IMG/VR virus record: IMGVR_UViG_3300000358_000077
Direction: 5' to 3' (one strand)
Length of the DNA: 21,074 bases
Origin: a virus
Taxonomy: Duplodnaviria > Heunggongvirae > Uroviricota > Caudoviricetes
Positions 1-7,879 of the stretch are shown in pieces (the stretch's first letter is position 1; each line of letters starts with the position of its first letter). The notes below the pieces were generated by a model, which did not search any database, had not been told where the DNA came from, and saw only the letters and a program-made list of their open reading frames with translations. Made by a program: the position numbers and the translations under genes.

Positions 1-1143
1 CTATGCTGTTTTGATATCTACGATAATCCAGTCTTTACCACGATCATCATTGTATCGGTCGGTCATTTTTCTGGATTTATGACCTAACAACTTTTGCGTA
101 TCCAGCCCCTGTTCCCGATATAACCGTTCTGACAGAGATCGCTGCTCATGAAATGTGGGCGCAGTTCCTGGCTCCCATTTTATGCCACATTTTTCCCTGG
201 CCTTTTTAAAAGCCGTTGTAAGAGTATTTGCAGAAACCTGGTCTCCTCTGTTTGCTTGAGAGGTAGTGTGACGGTAATGGACCAGATATTTACTAACAAC
301 AGCATCCCTGCACTGAGATATAACTTCACGAAGGGTAATATTCAGAGCATCGCATTTCAGGCTAAGCGGAATAGCAAGTTTTGAACCGGTTTTTTCCTGA
401 GTAATGTGCAACATGTCGTCCCATATATCAGAGAATTTCAAATTGCAGATATCGCCTAAACGTTGTCCAGTGACAAGAGCAAGTAGCATCCCGCATTTTA
501 AATAGGGCTGCCGTCTGCTTACGCTGTCAAATATTGCCTGCCATTCGGACAGTGATAATCTTTGGCGGTTTACTCGATTTCGCGGTTGTTTTGTTGCCTG
601 CGCTGGGTTAAATCCTGGCGGAACATGTCCTGCGTGTTGTGCTTCTTTGAAGACGTCGATCAACACCATTCTCACGACTTGCGCCATCCTGTTATGACCT
701 TCAGCCTTTACAGCATCAATTATTTCGGCAATATCAAGTGCGGTAATATCCTTGAGGTGTTGCATTCCACAATGCTCACGGAAGAGACGAATGGGTTTGC
801 CTTTTTGCCGATAGGAGTTGGGTCTTAGTTCATTATGTTGCAGCCTGTCCTCCTGGATAGAAATATATTTATCAAGCCATTCTGTCACCGTAATGTCTGA
901 GCGCCTGCCTTTCATTCTTTCCAGACGCTCATTGACGCTTAATATTTGTCGGGTACGTTGTTCAGCAATAATGGTATTTGCTTCAGTAGCAACCTGTTTT
1001 GCTTCATTCTCATCAGTTCCTAAACTATGAAAACGACCGGATAGTGGATGTTTGTATTGCCAATATACCTTTCCGGTTCGCTTATCTAATTTGCAATATA
1101 AATTGGGTATAGAGATTTTGTGAGATCGGGGTCTAGCAGCCAT
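1..1143 (-). CDS. int: Lambda-family tyrosine recombinase (phage integrase), 380 aa
   Basis: Full ORF with ATG at 1143..1141 and stop at 3..1. C-terminal region has the tyrosine-recombinase pattern (HEQRSLSERLY...LLGHKSRKMTDRY) resembling lambda Int, but the protein as a whole is not lambda Int. Overlaps the upstream xis-like ORF by 11 nt. Confidence 0.9.
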   Translation of the reverse strand: MAARPRSHKISIPNLYCKLDKRTGKVYWQYKHPLSGRFHSLGTDENEAKQVATEANTIIAEQRTRQILSVNERLERMKGRRSDITVTEWLDKYISIQEDRLQHNELRPNSYRQKGKPIRLFREHCGMQHLKDITALDIAEIIDAVKAEGHNRMAQVVRMVLIDVFKEAQHAGHVPPGFNPAQATKQPRNRVNRQRLSLSEWQAIFDSVSRRQPYLKCGMLLALVTGQRLGDICNLKFSDIWDDMLHITQEKTGSKLAIPLSLKCDALNITLREVISQCRDAVVSKYLVHYRHTTSQANRGDQVSANTLTTAFKKAREKCGIKWEPGTAPTFHEQRSLSERLYREQGLDTQKLLGHKSRKMTDRYNDDRGKDWIIVDIKTA

Positions 1144-1369
1144 CAGCGATTATCCGTTGGAGTTTTGGGTTTGCGTTGATTGGGAGTTGCGGTTCTGCAA
1201 GCGTTCCTACAAAACGGGAATTTCGGTCAATCATCCAGTAGCGACCAACTTTTATAGCGGGTGGGGCCATCATTTTCCCTTGCGCGTATTTTTTCAGAAC
1301 TCGCTCACTTGGTGCTAAGTCCCCAAATTCTTCTTTAGCCCAGTCCTGTAAAGTGATTAGTCGAGACAT
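1133..1369 (-). CDS. xis: Putative excisionase / recombination directionality factor, 78 aa
   Basis: Small ORF immediately upstream of and overlapping int (typical xis-int arrangement). ATG at 1369..1367 is preceded by an AGGAGG Shine-Dalgarno. The sequence is not lambda Xis; the assignment is positional. Confidence 0.55.
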   Translation of the reverse strand: MSRLITLQDWAKEEFGDLAPSERVLKKYAQGKMMAPPAIKVGRYWMIDRNSRFVGTLAEPQLPINANPKLQRIIADGC

Positions 1370-1449: not shown

Positions 1450-1525
1450 NNNNNNNNNNNNNNNNNNNNNNNNNNNNNNNNNNNNNNNNNNNNNNNNNNN
1501 NNNNNNNNNNNNNNNNNNNNNNNNN
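1450..1525. other. Run of 76 N (unresolved or masked sequence)
   Basis: Literal N characters in the sequence. ORFs called across it in the six-frame track are artefacts. Confidence 1.
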
Positions 1526-2134: not shown

Positions 2135-2161
2135 AATAATAAAAAAGGAGCCTGTAGCTCC
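2135..2161 (-). terminator. Putative rho-independent terminator for leftward transcription
   Basis: GGAGC-CTGTA-GCTCC hairpin at 2147..2161, followed on the minus strand by a U-rich tract (plus-strand AATAATAAAAAA at 2135..2146). Lies just downstream of the 71-aa gene. Confidence 0.45.
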
Positions 2162-2406: not shown

Positions 2407-3159
2407 TCACACTTCGAATGCCAGTTGAGGGGTAAAGACGTCCCGTTCAGCGTTGTAATTAAGTGAACTGGCACTGTTGAATGATTCAATGCGTTCCACA
2501 AGAACTTGCGTACGGGTTTCTTTACTTGCGGGAGCATATGGCGAACCTACCCAGGATTTGTCGATGCCTATATTTCTTGCGACGTTCGTGCTGTCTGCAG
2601 ACGAAAGCGGTACATGAGTAAAAATGTCTTTATTTAACATCCGTAACCCATGAATCTTGGTGATTGGGTAGCCGTACTGATCTACAACATGACGTATAAG
2701 ATCGCGTAGTTTAGCCCGACACGCTCTCGGTCGTTTTGCATCGTATTCCCCCATCGAGCCGATGCAGACGCGGGGAAACTCATGGCACAGACGAATAAAT
2801 CGCTCATCCGGTTCGTTCATGTGCCACACCGGAGCACCAATAAATTTACCGTGAGGCCATGCCGCAATCAGGGCGTCATTCTCTTCACTGGTTCTGCCGA
2901 TAACATCCGGGATAACCGCGAATGAGAAACGAGGGTGATTACCCCAGCGTTCAACAAATCTGTAATATTCATTCCAGTCTATGGCCTTGTTTTTTGTCCA
3001 GAATGTGAATGCACCATTATCAAGAGCAAATGATTGGGTGACTTCGGAAGCCAGATCAATCTGAGCTGGATTAGCAAAACTGATGAATGCGTGTCTGCCT
3101 TTCCAGGCTTTCAACGCACAGGTATCGGGAGTTATTGGACCACCGTGAAAATGAATCAT
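2407..3159 (-). CDS. Hypothetical protein, 250 aa, function unknown
   Basis: ATG at 3159..3157 preceded by a GGGAG Shine-Dalgarno. The start overlaps the stop of the upstream 52-aa ORF (ATGA). No motif I can assign with confidence. Confidence 0.6.
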   Translation of the reverse strand: MIHFHGGPITPDTCALKAWKGRHAFISFANPAQIDLASEVTQSFALDNGAFTFWTKNKAIDWNEYYRFVERWGNHPRFSFAVIPDVIGRTSEENDALIAAWPHGKFIGAPVWHMNEPDERFIRLCHEFPRVCIGSMGEYDAKRPRACRAKLRDLIRHVVDQYGYPITKIHGLRMLNKDIFTHVPLSSADSTNVARNIGIDKSWVGSPYAPASKETRTQVLVERIESFNSASSLNYNAERDVFTPQLAFEV

Positions 3160-3314
3160 ACACTCTCCCGTTTATTATTTATCTCCTCAGCCAGCCGCTG
3201 GGCTTTCAGCGGATTTCGGATAACAGAAAGGCCGGGAAATACCCAGCCTCGCTTTGTAACGGAGTAGACGAAAGTGATCGCGCCTACCCGGATATTATCG
3301 TGAGGATGCTTCAT
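3156..3314 (-). CDS. Small ORF, 52 aa, translationally coupled between exo and the 250-aa gene
   Basis: ATG at 3314..3312 overlaps the exo stop (ATGA); its TGA stop overlaps the ATG of the 250-aa gene. Not in the ORF track because it is under 60 aa; found by reading the minus strand. Same position as lambda orf60a. Confidence 0.4.
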
Positions 3315-3991
3315 TGCCATTGCTCCCCATATACAAAACCAATTTCAGCCAGTGCCTCGTCCATTTTTTCGATGAACTCCGGCACCATCTCGTCAAAACT
3401 CGCCATGTACTTTTCATTCCGCTCAACCACGACATAATGCAGGCCTTCACGCTTCATGCGCGGGTCATAGTTGGCAAAGTACCAGGCATCTTTTCGCGTC
3501 ACCCACATGCTGTACTGCACCTGGGCCATGTAAGCCGATTTTATTGCCTCGAAACCACCGAGCCGGAATTTCATGAAATCCCGGGAGGTAAACGGGCATT
3601 TCAGTTCAAGGCCGTTGCCGTCACTGCATAAACCATCGGGAGAGCAGGCGGTACGCATACTTTCGTCGCGATAGATGATCGGTGATTCAGTAACATTCAC
3701 GCCGGAAGTGAACTCAAACAGGGCTCTGGCGTCGTTCTCGTACTGTTTTCCCCAGGCCAGCGCTTTAGCGTTAACTTCCGGAGCCACACCGGTGCAAACC
3801 TCAGCAAGCAGGGTGTGGAAGTAGGACATTTTCATGTCAGGCCACTTTTTTCCGGAGCGGGGTTTTGCTATTACGTTATGAACTTCTGAAGCTGTGATGA
3901 CGCCGAGCCGTAATTTGTGCCACGCATCATCCCCCTGTTCGACAGCTCTCACGTCGATCCCGGTACGCTGCAGGATAATGTCCGGTGTCAT
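3311..3991 (-). CDS. exo: Lambda exonuclease (Red-alpha), 226 aa
   Basis: Protein [40 protein letters not shown]... is near-identical to lambda Exo as I recall it. 4-nt overlap with bet. Confidence 0.95.
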
Positions 3992-4773
3992 GCTGCCACC
4001 TTCTGCTCTGCGGCTTTCTGTTTCAGGAATCCAAGAGCTTTTACTGCTTCGGCCTGTGTCAGTTCTGACGATGCGCGAATGTCGCGGCGAAATATCTGGG
4101 AACAGAGCGGCAATAAGTCGTCATCCCATGTTTTATCCAGGGCGATCAGCAGAGTGTTAATCTCCTGCATGCTTTCATCGTTAACCGGAGTGATGTCGCG
4201 TTCCGGCTGGCGTTCTGCAGTGTATGCGGTATTTTCGACAATGCGCTCGGCTTCATCCTTGTCATAGATACCAGCAAATCCGAAGGCCAGGCGGGCACAC
4301 TGAATCATGGTTTTATGCCGTAACATTCGTTTGGGATGCGACTGCCACGGCCCCGTGATTTCTCTGCCTTCGCGAGTTTTGAATGGTTCGCGGCGGCATT
4401 CATCCATCCATTCGGTAACGCAGATCGGATGATTACGGTCCTTGCGGTAAATCCGGCATGTACAGGATTCATTGTCCTGTTCAAAGTCCATGCCGTCAAA
4501 CTGCTGGTTTTCGTTGATGATGCGGGACCAGCCATCAACGCCCACCACCGGAACGATGCCGTTCTGCTTATCAGGGAAGGCGTAAATTTCTTTCGTCCAC
4601 GGATTAAGGCCGTATTGGTTGGCGACGATCAGCAATGCGATGAACTGCGCATCGCTGGCATCGCCTTTAAATGCTGTCTGGCGAAGAGTGGTGATCAGTT
4701 CCTGTAGGTCGACAGAATCCATGCCGACACGTTCAGCCAGCTTCCCTGCCAGCGTTGCGAGTGCTGTACTCAT
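3988..4773 (-). CDS. bet: Single-strand annealing protein Bet (Red-beta), 261 aa
   Basis: Protein [48 protein letters not shown]... is near-identical to lambda Bet as I recall it. Confidence 0.95.
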
Positions 4774-4778
4774 CCGTT

Positions 4779-5075
4779 TTATACCTCTGAATCAATATCA
4801 ACCTGATGGTGAGCAATGGTTTCAACCATGTACCGGATGTGTTCTGCCATGCGCTCCTGAAACTCAACATCGTCATCAAACGCACGGGTAATGGCTTTTT
4901 TGCTGGCCCCGTGGCGTTGCAAATGATCGATGCATAGCGATTCAAACAGGTGCTGGGGCAGGCCTTTTTCCATGTCGTCTGCCAGTTCTGCCTCTTTCTC
5001 TTCACGGGCGATCTGCTGGTAGTGACGCGCCCAGCTTTGAGCCTCAAGACGATCCTGAATGTAATAAGCGTTCAT
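4779..5075 (-). CDS. gam: Gam (RecBCD inhibitor), 98-aa GamS form
   Basis: Protein [47 protein letters not shown]... is near-identical to lambda GamS. The upstream frame (..FRSSA before the Met) hits a stop quickly, so the long GamL form is not encoded. Confidence 0.9.
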
Positions 5076-5150: not shown

Positions 5151-5357
5151 TTAGTGATTCAGGCCGTTGCCGCGTCCGTCGAGAAAAACTTCCACGAGCA
5201 AATCACGGGTATAAGTGCGCTCGATGCCGCGATGCAGATAAAGCCGTCCGCGTAAATTAGCTGATGCAGTCCAGGTACCATCTTTGTGTTTGACCAGCAT
5301 TCCTGGCATGACCGCACCGCGATTAACGGTCTGCGTTCCGTAATGTTGATGAACCAT
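5151..5357 (-). CDS. Hypothetical protein, 68 aa, in the kil/cIII position
   Basis: ATG at 5357..5355 preceded by AGGAG with a 5-nt spacer. First gene downstream of the leftward early leader. The sequence is not lambda Kil or CIII as far as I can recall. Confidence 0.5.
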   Translation of the reverse strand: MVHQHYGTQTVNRGAVMPGMLVKHKDGTWTASANLRGRLYLHRGIERTYTRDLLVEVFLDGRGNGLNH

Positions 5358-5632
5358 AAAAACTCCTGCCCGTAAGCTGGGCTGCTGAACAAATAAGGGG
5401 TTGCGCAGTATCTGGCGGTGGATGGCCGCCGGTTGTCATAACTAAGTCGCCTCGTTGAAGCAACTGAGGTATGAAGTGTTGAGTTGATTTCAGCTGGTCA
5501 CACCGACGTTCACGCGTCCGTTTCACCCCTCGCACTCCCCGGAGCCTGCTGAAATTCAAGCTGCGGATCTAAGCGGTCATCGCAACGGTGAATCAGGTGG
5601 TTGCCGTATCGTTGTGTTGTTGCGACATGGTG

Positions 5633-5661
5633 ATAATAGCTATTGCTATTGGTGATATCAA
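5633..5661 (-). promoter_or_regulatory. Candidate leftward early promoter (pL analogue)
   Basis: On the minus strand: TTGATA (-35, plus 5656..5661), 17-nt spacer, TATTAT (-10, plus 5633..5638). Overlaps the TTGCTATT operator repeats. Confidence 0.45.
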
Positions 5662-5710
5662 TACTTATTGCTATTGTTAGATGTGTTTTGCTATTAAATG
5701 TTTGATAGCA
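5635..5710. promoter_or_regulatory. Left operator region (OL analogue): repeated TTGCTATT / ATAGCAA motifs
   Basis: TTGCTATT at 5643, 5668 and 5688, with inverted ATAGCAA copies at 5635..5640 and 5704..5710. The same 8-mer recurs twice between cI and cro. Confidence 0.5.
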
Positions 5711-5800
5711 AAAAGAATTAATTTTGTAACTTGAATCGCATAGCGATAACTGAAGCGAGGTCGTGGTGGTTTTTTGAACGGTTTGTGTGATGAGGGGAGG

Positions 5801-5828
5801 CAAAAGAAAACCCGGCACGGTGGCCGGG
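5801..5828 (-). terminator. Rho-independent terminator immediately after the 317-aa gene
   Basis: CCCGGC-ACGGTG-GCCGGG hairpin (5811..5828) followed on the minus strand by UUUUCUUUUG (plus CAAAAGAAAA at 5801..5810). Starts about 6 nt after the stop codon. Confidence 0.6.
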
Positions 5829-5833
5829 TATCT

Positions 5834-6787
5834 TTATTCGAATGGAAGATCTATTTGCCTTTGAGGATTCAACTGTTTTTTTACATGCTCAATTTCGAAT
5901 ATGGTTTTTATGGCATCTCCGATCATATATTGAGTTACTTTTAAATCTACAAGTAACATATCACCTTTAGAAAAATTTAAGGTGTTGTTATCAATATCGC
6001 TGATGAATTTCTGGTCTTTTATTTCAGCCAAAAAGCTACTGGCACCATCAGAAAACCGCCACCGGCTTCCTTCATTGAAGGAAATATTTTTAATTTGAAG
6101 GGCTTTCTCTACTGTGTACTCTGAAATTATTGATTCTGCTGGTAGATTGACTTTGAAATAATGTGCTTCTTGCTTGTTGATCGTCATGAATGTCAAACCA
6201 TCATCGACAGTAGAGGCAAAGCTGTCAATGCCTTCCTGCTCTAATGGCTTACTTATAACTTCTTGTAATGAAGAGCGAAGTTTAATATTTTTATAAAGTT
6301 CAATAACGTTACTGTCGTAGATCTCGCTTTCGTCATCAACAAAGACTTCGATGTTGCTATCAGGCAAATTGTGTAATTTTTTTATTTTCCTTGGACCTAT
6401 CCATTTTATCAGTTGAATTAGGCCTTTGCATATTTTTTCTTTAGAACCAGGACAGAGTCCAATAAAAGCAATCAAATTCGCAGCGGCTGTTGCTGAATCG
6501 CCGGATAAAAAATCAACAGCCTGTTTGAACCAAGATGTAGATGAGGCAACCAGATCTATTCCAAATGAGCCAGCTTTAAATGATGCATTGACTTTTACAG
6601 AAACAACAGTCTTGTTTCCGTAGAGAGTTTTACCGGCTTCCTCTAATGCATCTGATAGTGATAGAAGGGCAGGAGCAAGGTCTCGCACGTTCATTTCATG
6701 CGTTTCCAGTGCCGGACCGTCGTATACTATCCTGAACTTCATATCATTGGTTTCCGAATTGTTGCCCGCATCCATTATGGCATTCAC
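5834..6787 (-). CDS. Hypothetical protein, about 317 aa, in the rexA/rexB slot downstream of cI; function unknown
   Basis: Long ORF co-oriented with cI, followed by its own terminator, visibly AT-rich relative to flanking phage genes. Start is ambiguous: GTG at 6787, ATG at 6775 or ATG at 6742, none with a strong Shine-Dalgarno. No recognisable motif. Confidence 0.65.
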   Translation of the reverse strand: MNAIMDAGNNSETNDMKFRIVYDGPALETHEMNVRDLAPALLSLSDALEEAGKTLYGNKTVVSVKVNASFKAGSFGIDLVASSTSWFKQAVDFLSGDSATAAANLIAFIGLCPGSKEKICKGLIQLIKWIGPRKIKKLHNLPDSNIEVFVDDESEIYDSNVIELYKNIKLRSSLQEVISKPLEQEGIDSFASTVDDGLTFMTINKQEAHYFKVNLPAESIISEYTVEKALQIKNISFNEGSRWRFSDGASSFLAEIKDQKFISDIDNNTLNFSKGDMLLVDLKVTQYMIGDAIKTIFEIEHVKKQLNPQRQIDLPFE

Positions 6788-6848: not shown

Positions 6849-7541
6849 CTACCCATGCTTCCTATACGTCTGCGGCATGCTCCCAATAACCTTACCGAAG
6901 ATGAACACCCGGTTCATCTCGTCTTTCTCGATCGGGTCCCAAGGTGAGTAGCTCTTGTTATCAGAGATAACCAGCAGCTTATCCTTCATCATTTGCAGAC
7001 GCTTTACATGGGCTGTGTCGTCGTACAGAAACGCATAGATACCATCACCGTCGAAAGATTTAACCGTGATATCAACGAACAGCAGATCACCTGGTTCGAT
7101 CGTTCCTGACATGCTGTCACCACGCACGTTAATGATGCGGATATTTTCCGCCTTCCTGCCATCGAACATGTGACGAGCATCGTCAAACGAGTACTCAACC
7201 GAGCGTAGAACTTCTACAAACTCACGATTGATGACACCCGGCCCGGCACTGACTTCTATATCAAGAACGTCAATCTTGAAGTATTTGGAATGGTTGACAG
7301 CAGGCTTCCCTGATTGTTGACCGTCATTTCTCATCGGGCCTATGCCTGATGAGAGCCACTCAGTTCGAACACCCAATGCATTAGCTATTTCAACAATTTT
7401 TGTTGAGCCGCGCGCGTTGCCGCTTGTCAGTCTCCAGATTGTGGGTTGAGCTACGCCAGACGCCTTTGCAAGAGCGCCTTGAGACATTCCAGATTGTTCC
7501 ATCGCTAGGTTTAAGCGATCAGCAAGAGTTTCTTTTTTCAT
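6849..7541 (-). CDS. cI: CI-type immunity repressor (N-terminal HTH, C-terminal S24 LexA-like peptidase domain), 230 aa
   Basis: HTH-like segment GMSQGALAKASGVAQPTIWRL. C-terminal domain has the autocleavage-type serine (RGDSMSGTI) and lysine (AHVKRL) motifs. ATG at 7541..7539 sits close to the predicted pRM start (near-leaderless, as in lambda). The track ORF to 7577 uses an upstream TTG. Confidence 0.85.
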   Translation of the reverse strand: MKKETLADRLNLAMEQSGMSQGALAKASGVAQPTIWRLTSGNARGSTKIVEIANALGVRTEWLSSGIGPMRNDGQQSGKPAVNHSKYFKIDVLDIEVSAGPGVINREFVEVLRSVEYSFDDARHMFDGRKAENIRIINVRGDSMSGTIEPGDLLFVDITVKSFDGDGIYAFLYDDTAHVKRLQMMKDKLLVISDNKSYSPWDPIEKDEMNRVFIFGKVIGSMPQTYRKHG

Positions 7542-7579
7542 AAGTTTTAATTTATACGCTCGCGTATTGATGGTCAAAA

Positions 7580-7640: not shown

Positions 7641-7651
7641 AGGAATTGATA

Positions 7652-7879
7652 ATGACAAATCAAACCATTCAACTCGCAATCAGTATTACAGGTAGTCAAA
7701 AACGACTGGCAGATCTATGCGGTGTAGCCCAACCCACTGTTTGGCGTTGGCTACACGGTGGCGGAATTGATGCCCGCTATGTAATGAAAATTGTCTCAGC
7801 CACTGGTGGAAAGATTAAACCAGCAGATATTCGTCCCGACCTCGCACCATTGTTTAACGCGAGTAATTCTGCCGCCTAA
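7652..7879 (+). CDS. cro: Cro-like HTH regulator (YdaS-like), 75 aa
   Basis: Divergent from cI across the operator region. ATG at 7652 preceded by AGGA with a 7-nt spacer (the track ORF starts at an upstream TTG). HTH-like segment LADLCGVAQPTVWRW. Confidence 0.7.
   Translation: MTNQTIQLAISITGSQKRLADLCGVAQPTVWRWLHGGGIDARYVMKIVSATGGKIKPADIRPDLAPLFNASNSAA

Follow-up and report, generated by a model that had tools for sequence, protein, structure and literature searches.

The leader of the early left operon in this lambdoid E. coli prophage is a real, strongly conserved, non-coding pL leader, and the lineage that carries it has neither an N gene nor a put element. It occupies the ~270 nt between the predicted pL promoter and kil and consists of two parts, a lineage-specific 5' core and a 3' module that is shared with other phages. 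Textbooks present early antitermination by N as a feature of lambdoid phages, and to our knowledge put is the only alternative to N so far. Here we have a very common E. coli prophage lineage, viable isolates included, that uses neither of the two. We found no description of this leader in the literature.

There are two possible ways to look at this lineage. It may represent a natural N-independent design in which entry into the Red recombination genes and the toxic kil gene is under the control of a conserved leader alone. The other possibility is that a new RNA device acting on RNA polymerase is concealed in the leader. Either answer bears on the timing of prophage induction and the containment of kil toxicity in lysogens, as well as on the role that the three-hairpin module plays in phi80, HK639, P22-like and other phages.

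The early region and the position of the leader

The window, i.e. the whole stretch of 21,074 nt that was analysed, contains the early region of a lambdoid E. coli prophage. The features that we refer to are listed in Table 1; the O and P genes lie on the + strand. The pL promoter was predicted where the first-pass annotation had it, and the claim that no credible gene lies between pL and kil was borne out as well: the ORF lists show no ATG-initiated ORF of useful length within 5358..5632. Transcription is predicted to start at ~5626, as relatives with three other types of promoter and operator join the conserved leader near this position. Just upstream of pL a strong terminator (5829..5810) closes the cI transcript.

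Table 1. Coordinates of the early-region features in the window (position 1 is the first base of the window; paired segments are given in the direction of the leader transcript).
Feature	Position	Strand	Remarks
int	1..1143	-	left operon
xis	1133..1369	-	left operon
Intrinsic-terminator-like hairpin	2147..2161	-	GGAGC..GCUCC, then UUUUUUAUUA; moderate, dG -8.6 kcal/mol
exo	3311..3991	-	left operon
bet	3988..4773	-	left operon
gam	4779..5075	-	left operon, after kil
kil	5151..5357	-	first gene of the pL operon; PHROG 294, E 1.3e-37; same annotation in relatives; start ATG 5357, Shine-Dalgarno AGGAG 5367..5363
Arginine-rich ORF (..RLRGVRGVKRTRERR..)	5323..5559	-	possible starts TTG 5559, GTG 5535, GTG 5526; probably not a gene
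Shared intergenic module	5358..5476	-	three hairpins; C-rich, G-poor
Hairpin E	5363..5382	-	GCCC 5382..5379 with GGGC 5371..5368; abuts the kil Shine-Dalgarno
Hairpin D	5414..5430	-	GGCGG-CCAUCCA-CCGCC; dG -9.0 kcal/mol; nearly invariant across genera
Hairpin C	5437..5473	-	15 pairs; predicted dG -14.8 kcal/mol
Lineage-specific 5' core of the leader	5477..5626	-	150 nt; C-rich 5' end, G-rich centre
Long-range inverted repeat	5484..5559	-	5559..5548 with 5494..5484; 11 pairs, one bulge; read from the sequence
5'-terminal inverted repeat	5579..5626	-	5626..5619 with 5586..5579; 8 RNA pairs, 32-nt loop; read from the sequence
pL promoter (predicted)	5633..5661	-	-35 TTGATA 5661..5656, 17-nt spacer, -10 TATTAT 5638..5633; promoter scan, 10/12 matches
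OL operator repeats	5635..5696	.	TATTGCTATTG-like, 4 copies; pattern search
cI-like repressor	6849..7577	-	
OR/pR operator cluster	7584..7647		matches the OL TATTGCTATTG motif; pattern search
cro	7646..7879	+	
cII/YdaT-like gene	7904..8449	+	
Q-like late antiterminator	16187..16876	+	

A few other characteristics of the window were recorded. Four runs of N of 60-76 nt each are masked (1450..1525, 9400..9473, 15670..15729 and 19977..20049) and leave the leader untouched. In the rexAB position between cI and pL there is a 317-aa ORF (5834..6787, - strand) with matches to the candidate defence family PDC-S42 (288 bits) and to PHROG 3243, and the terminator 5829..5810 stands after it. In relatives the position is taken by other genes, among them those for a SIR2 protein, a BamE-like lipoprotein and an ASCH-domain protein. 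The stretch between ren and ninB holds two inserted genes in reverse orientation (12786..14084 and 10879..12426, both - strand). They encode a PD-Lambda-1 defence protein (631 bits) and an HD-domain protein that matches a dGTPase weakly. On its way to Q the pR transcript has to traverse ~3.9 kb antisense of these two inserts. In the left operon the N-terminal half of a 250-aa ORF (2407..3159, - strand) matches a PHROG annotated as queuine tRNA-ribosyltransferase (E 3e-98), with no Pfam match.

Search for an N gene and for put RNA

The first-pass annotation had reported that no N gene is recognisable between pL and gam and had suggested that either a minimal N-like antiterminator or a cis-acting RNA similar to HK022 put may operate here. 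There is indeed no N gene in the leader. With PHROGs and Pfam we detected no N-like protein in the early region, where the other ORFs that we tested did not match an N family either, and annotated relatives have no CDS in the leader. For a lambda N-type protein one would expect a conserved ORF of ~100 aa just downstream of pL, and no such ORF is present. What we do find is the arginine-rich ORF, at the place and with the three possible starts described before, which is 68-78 aa long in the window. The motif KRTRERR follows directly after GTG 5526, though a short basic run alone is weak evidence, and GGGGAG (5540..5535) ends 8 nt before this start. The ORF has no PHROG or Pfam family match, and a comparison with 5.8 billion protein clusters returned only four near-identical E. 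coli matches, none of them named N. Gene callers almost never call it.

We compared this ORF across 85 unique leader variants, which had been gathered via an anchor outside the ORF. Its length is unstable. The first stop was observed at codon 20 (TAG) in 24 of the 85 variants, at codon 29 in six, where a 5-nt TCAAC insertion shifts the frame, at codon 39 in one, and at codon 67-68 in five, which are of the window type with a 2-nt deletion. In 48 variants the ORF continues in frame into kil, and in one the start is lost, with GGG in its place. Among the 84 variants scored for the start codon at 5526, 78 have GTG and five have ATG. The first 12 codons are invariant, third positions included, with the exception of one AAA/AAG change. 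As the synonymous sites are also invariant, this constraint acts on the nucleotides or the RNA and not on a protein. The polymorphic sites across the first 20 codons comprise four synonymous and six non-synonymous ones, and the diversity at the third positions of this frame is 0.039 compared to 0.021-0.025. A second small ORF, MTTGGHPPP from 5439, was considered and dropped: the nucleotides of its first codons are conserved, without synonymous variation, frame and length vary between phages, and three variants have a 1-nt deletion.

The signals that accompany N in lambda were not detected either. A pattern scan of both early leaders gave no boxA-like match, and in the same two leaders we found no stem of 4-6 bp with a GNRNA pentaloop that could serve as boxB. 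On the right side cro is separated from the next gene by a gap of only 24 nt, which leaves no room for a nutR/tR1 interval. The proposal of a minimal N-like antiterminator thus fails on the missing homologues beyond near-identical E. coli entries, on the unstable length of the ORF and on the lack of boxA and boxB. The arginine-rich ORF is probably incidental and not a gene.

The put RNA of HK022, HK639 and their relatives is a cis-acting antiterminator that binds the beta' zinc-binding domain of RNA polymerase (PMC9378689). In order to search for it we used a covariance model, R1, based on an alignment of 26 put elements taken from viral contigs and run with filters off. The controls scored 95 bits for HK022 putL, 88 bits for HK639 putL and 61 bits for HK022 putR. 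The best match in the window scored 5.7 bits (E 7.3) and lies inside bet, outside the leader; other members of the leader family were also negative. The leader does not show the put consensus (stem I GAACGGCSCG..GUCGG, stem II GGCG..CAAU), and the stem II signature GGCGGGnUCAGGAnGAnCGGCAAU is absent from it. A local alignment of the leader with a put-containing leader resulted in a score of 26 compared to a shuffle mean of 25.7, and so the resemblance of GAAACGGACGCG..CGUCGG to put was dismissed as chance. By these model and alignment scores the leader is not a member of the put family. The looser idea of a cis-acting leader RNA survives and has positional support: the core would cover ~+1 to +150 of the pL transcript, and in relatives this slot, ahead of the same module, is taken by putL. 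Viral contigs often contain put-like elements, with more than 120 stretches that match a strict pattern (among loci L139-L258).

A BLAST search for a second copy of the leader or for put elements in the rest of the window gave only chance matches of 8-12 nt. For the whole window no Rfam family reached its gathering threshold. When we allowed E values of up to 10 for 5300..5720, all matches were at chance level (ROSE, 16.5 bits with a cut-off of 45).

Conservation and structure of core and module

The leader was found in 2,235 of 5,426 complete E. coli genomes at 90-100% identity, mostly 90-99%, and 2,206 of these matches cover at least 80% of the query. Besides many E. coli prophages, isolated plaque-forming phages carry it: 4A7, 4C10 (Bievrevirus), 1W, 3W, Perceval and the PhiR series. 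The same leader is joined at ~+1 to at least three unrelated promoter/operator sets, and thus to different immunity types, and two further variants diverge in the first 35 nt only. Nucleotide diversity amounts to 0.34 for the promoter, 0.0245 for 5592..5477 and 0.027-0.030 for the module. For kil we obtained 0.018, 0.021 and 0.077 at the first, second and third codon position, so that the diversity of the leader is about one third of the third-position value in the same loci. These values point to a constraint on the core at the nucleotide level, although recombination that spread the core recently, and not selection, could account for part of its low diversity. The core does tolerate indels, namely an expansion of the TCAAC repeat and an 8-nt insertion in locus L089.

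Two smaller observations concern the ends of the core. At its 3' end (5476..5490; alignment columns 152-156) the UCAAC unit is duplicated once more in L100, L027, L039 and L051, at the junction of core and module. Near its 5' end we noticed AACGAT (5608..5613, - strand, ~+14 to +19 of the predicted pL transcript), the sequence of the -10-like sigma-70 pause element of lambda pR'. It is absent from the divergent 5' variants L007 and L089 and hence may be a chance occurrence.

The first-pass annotation had described the leader as structured on account of two inverted repeats. Both repeats are real: TCGCAAC (5580..5586) and GTTGCGA (5619..5625) are exact reverse complements, and the long-range repeat has the reported extent, with the G-rich centre and a small hairpin (GACG/CGUC, 5518..5505) inside it. 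However, the folding energy is no better than that of shuffled sequences (z = -0.80 for 5340..5640 and z = +0.23 for 5477..5626), a 7-bp repeat within 270 nt is expected by chance, and the 5'-terminal repeat does not appear in the minimum-energy fold. By themselves, the inverted repeats are thus no more than chance would give. The conservation of the leader and the covariation in its 3' third do go beyond chance, and neither had been singled out before.

We checked the two core helices for covariation in an alignment of 68 sequences, in which they are 99.3% paired and all common stem polymorphisms keep the pairing via G-U. For the 5'-terminal repeat we observed A-U/G-U polymorphisms in 17 sequences and C-G/U-G in two. 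For the long-range repeat the common polymorphisms 5486 C/U and 5550 A/G are both retained as G-U pairs. Neither helix shows double or compensatory changes, for which the divergence is too low, and the data are thus compatible with the helices and not a proof of them. In 3.56 Mb of related loci a profile of the core (nhmmer) detected a single copy at each locus and no diverged one. In kil-anchored loci of Citrobacter, Kluyvera, Enterobacter, Silvania and Pseudocitrobacter there was no core homologue upstream of kil, which makes a deep covariation analysis of the core impossible.

The module has a much wider distribution. A search of the phage collection showed that 5475..5414 is common to HK225, phi80 and phages of Enterobacter, Klebsiella and Salmonella, while HK639 shares a shorter stretch (5441..5412); P22-like phages have the module as well. 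In the alignment with phi80, HK225, HK639, KO-TP1, S9-5 and ENT1 the homology begins exactly at CATACC (5476) and ends at the ribosome-binding site of the next gene. We define the module family, which is a family of the present analysis and not a published one, by CAUAC, a covarying hairpin, GUUAUGACAACC and GGCGG-CCAUCCA-CCGCC upstream of kil or a small ORF, all of which are present in 5476..5358. Further examples in related loci are L145 6241..6375, L259 2000..2141 and L005 1366..1500.

Across seven phages we detected compensatory double changes at nine of the 26 predicted pairs of the module, eight of them in hairpin C. When 27 variants of hairpin C were compared, 7 of 14 pairs showed compensatory double changes, with up to six pair types at one position, and all polymorphisms within the family keep the pairing. 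Hairpin C is thus a real structure backed by covariation. Hairpin D has no U-tract behind it in the window and is therefore not a canonical intrinsic terminator. For hairpin E, inspection of the alignment showed that the stem differs in relatives yet pairs (GCGC/GCGC, GCC/GGC); RNAalifold did not predict it across the seven phages, and within the family 98.2% of the cells pair. The module has a C/G ratio of 1.3-2.0, and a 60-nt stretch contains up to 11 YC dinucleotides. This composition is rut-like and the module looks like a Rho loading site, with the caveat that Rho sites are not reliably predictable from composition. In view of the strong covariation in hairpin C and the absence of an Rfam family, the module looks like an undescribed conserved RNA motif by itself.

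We then sorted the 110 usable occurrences of the module motif in a metagenome scan by the element directly upstream. An intrinsic terminator within 12 nt was found in 61 cases (51 distinct contexts), the core in 39, putL in 6 and something else in 4. In the six aligned relatives a canonical intrinsic terminator, e.g. GCCGCCTAACCAGCGGCTTTTTT, stands directly or 6 nt upstream of CATACC. In the five of them that are annotated it closes the first early gene(s); the window has neither the gene(s) nor the terminator. The put class is represented by L145 6155..6228, L266 7508..7581 and L271 2393..2466, where a single putL adjoins the module upstream of kil, with neither gene nor terminator ahead of the module and no putR within 13-14 kb. 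The order in L145 is pL, ~70 nt, putL (94.9 bits), 14 nt, module, a small ORF and a 67-aa ORF in the position of kil. There is thus one slot with three occupants: early gene(s) with a terminator (the N gene in phi80), putL or the core. The position of the core in this slot suggests an active role in cis, which is an argument from position only. The three interchangeable occupants also provide a direct experimental handle.

In the 4 kb that follow the module we found few strong canonical terminators, namely in 3 of 51 loci of the terminator class, 0 of 6 of the put class and 1 of 79 of the core class. The signals that N and put overcome there are consequently not obvious intrinsic terminators, and they may be Rho-dependent. 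For the window we found no terminator-like site on the + strand from pR to 9,800. The terminator-like hairpin 2161..2147 lies inside the left operon, between the exo-side genes and the TraR/DksA-like gene, xis and int.

Possible function of the leader and comparison with known systems

The account that we tentatively favour, and that we would call plausible rather than probable, is an N-independent architecture with the module as a gate for kil expression and the core as an element that acts in cis on this RNA. After loss of the repressor, RNA polymerase would start at ~5626 and run straight into kil-gam-bet-exo. Neither the early gene(s) nor the intrinsic terminator found ahead of the module in annotated relatives is present, and tR1 and a nutR interval are missing from the right operon as well; early expression would thus be N-independent by architecture. 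The module would form a cis-regulatory gate on the toxic kil gene, probably through Rho/NusG-sensitive attenuation of the untranslated RNA, to which RNA processing at hairpin C and control of translation at hairpin E may contribute. The core may stabilise the 5' end of the transcript, modulate the read-through of the module or do both. The plaque-forming phages with the same leader demonstrate that the design works. The absence of N, nut and put, the missing terminator of the relatives and the lack of any other visible early barrier are in line with this account, as are the constraint on a leader that is conserved in at least three immunity types, the covariation in hairpin C, the rut-like composition of the module and the silencing of kil in Rac as a precedent. 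On the other hand, 150 nearly invariant nucleotides exceed the usual need of a plain 5' UTR, the position in the N/put slot suggests a more active role, and the model leaves the passage of the left-operon terminator 2161..2147 ahead of xis/int unexplained.

A different explanation, which we regard as rather unlikely, is that the core could be an undescribed cis-acting processive antiterminator or anti-Rho RNA, an analogue of put and not a homologue, that modifies the emerging RNA polymerase so that it passes the module and later signals of the left operon. The core shares its slot with the terminator and with putL, which is separated from the module by 14 nt that contain no gene. As the put-carrying relatives have a single put in the left operon only, the single copy of the core is no objection. 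Conservation at the RNA level starts from ~+1 across immunity types and extends to the third codon positions of the sole ORF, phages with the leader are viable, and both the hairpin 2161..2147 and the rut-like module would be something to pass. Nevertheless, there is no excess folding stability, no compensatory change (at a divergence too low for it), no similarity to put in covariance model or alignment and no relative outside E. coli for a covariation test. Moreover, few strong terminators stand downstream in any of the three classes, so that a need for antitermination is no more than presumed. The more specific proposal that the core is a third solution to early antitermination, a cis-acting RNA unrelated in sequence to put that renders RNA polymerase resistant to both Rho-dependent and intrinsic termination in the left operon, in a prophage lineage that occurs in ~40% of complete E. 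coli genomes, we consider unlikely.

It is also conceivable, if distinctly improbable, that the core is a functionless remnant of a lost N-terminator cassette and that the block pL-kil-gam-bet-exo has only lately been distributed among E. coli prophages by recombination, so that the core merely looks conserved. The copies all share at least 90% identity and are restricted to E. coli, the structure statistics are unremarkable and indels are tolerated. Against this, the diversity is ~3 times below that of the third codon positions of kil in the same loci, and at ~+1 this one sequence follows several unrelated promoter/operator sets. No class-A leader in the 3.56 Mb of related loci is homologous to the core, which is therefore not an obvious remnant of a known N leader. 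Finally, translation of the arginine-rich ORF from GTG or ATG 5526 would yield a basic peptide of at least 16-20 residues, either a leader peptide that couples translation and transcription over the rut-like module or an RNA-binding ARM peptide. The spacing of GGGGAG, the preserved start codon, the nearly invariant first 12 residues and the slightly higher third-position diversity in its frame would fit such a peptide. We nevertheless judge it very unlikely, given the shifting stop codons and fusions to kil, the lost start in one variant, several indels, the invariance that includes synonymous sites, the ratio of synonymous to non-synonymous polymorphisms, the near absence of gene calls and the lack of homologues. 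Lambda N carries regions that bind NusA and RNA polymerase, and 20 residues are too short to hold them.

Returning to the gated, N-independent architecture, a functional precedent is found in the Rac prophage. Silencing of kilR by Rho and NusG is established there (PMC5793797), i.e. kil is guarded by termination, and the toxic gene likewise sits behind a long untranslated stretch. In contrast to this likeness, the Rac sequence has no similarity to the leader (alignment score 29 compared to a shuffle mean of 29.5), the gene order differs, and the Rho dependence of the leader is suggested by its composition only. In E. coli K-12 Rac a small RNA, KilS, is annotated ~175 nt upstream of kilR (L383 2906..3003, - strand). 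It is not homologous to the leader and constitutes another RNA feature ahead of a prophage kil gene.

The module itself can be compared with two annotated terminators. Hairpin D together with its flanking bases (5412..5441) shows 100% identity with a feature of HK639 that is a terminator by annotation only; in phi80 it falls in the stretch annotated as tL1 (record M11919), again by annotation only. The window differs from both in that hairpin D has no U-tract behind it. With put the leader has in common that it is non-coding and located just downstream of pL, and L145, L266 and L271 carry their one left-operon copy of putL 14 nt upstream of the same module. The core is, however, with its 150 nt twice as long as put, and it has neither the covariance-model match nor the stem II signature GGCGGGnUCAGGAnGAnCGGCAAU. 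The N/nut systems of lambda, P22 (gene 24), phage 21 and phi80 (M11919) differ from the leader, which has no conserved ORF, no homology to the N family, no boxA, boxB or nutR interval, and no canonical terminator before the module. Nevertheless the leader occupies the same slot as these systems, downstream of pL and upstream of kil/gam/bet/exo, its ORF begins with an arginine-rich stretch as lambda-type N does, and in phi80 the module that the window shares with it stands behind the N gene and the terminator of that gene.
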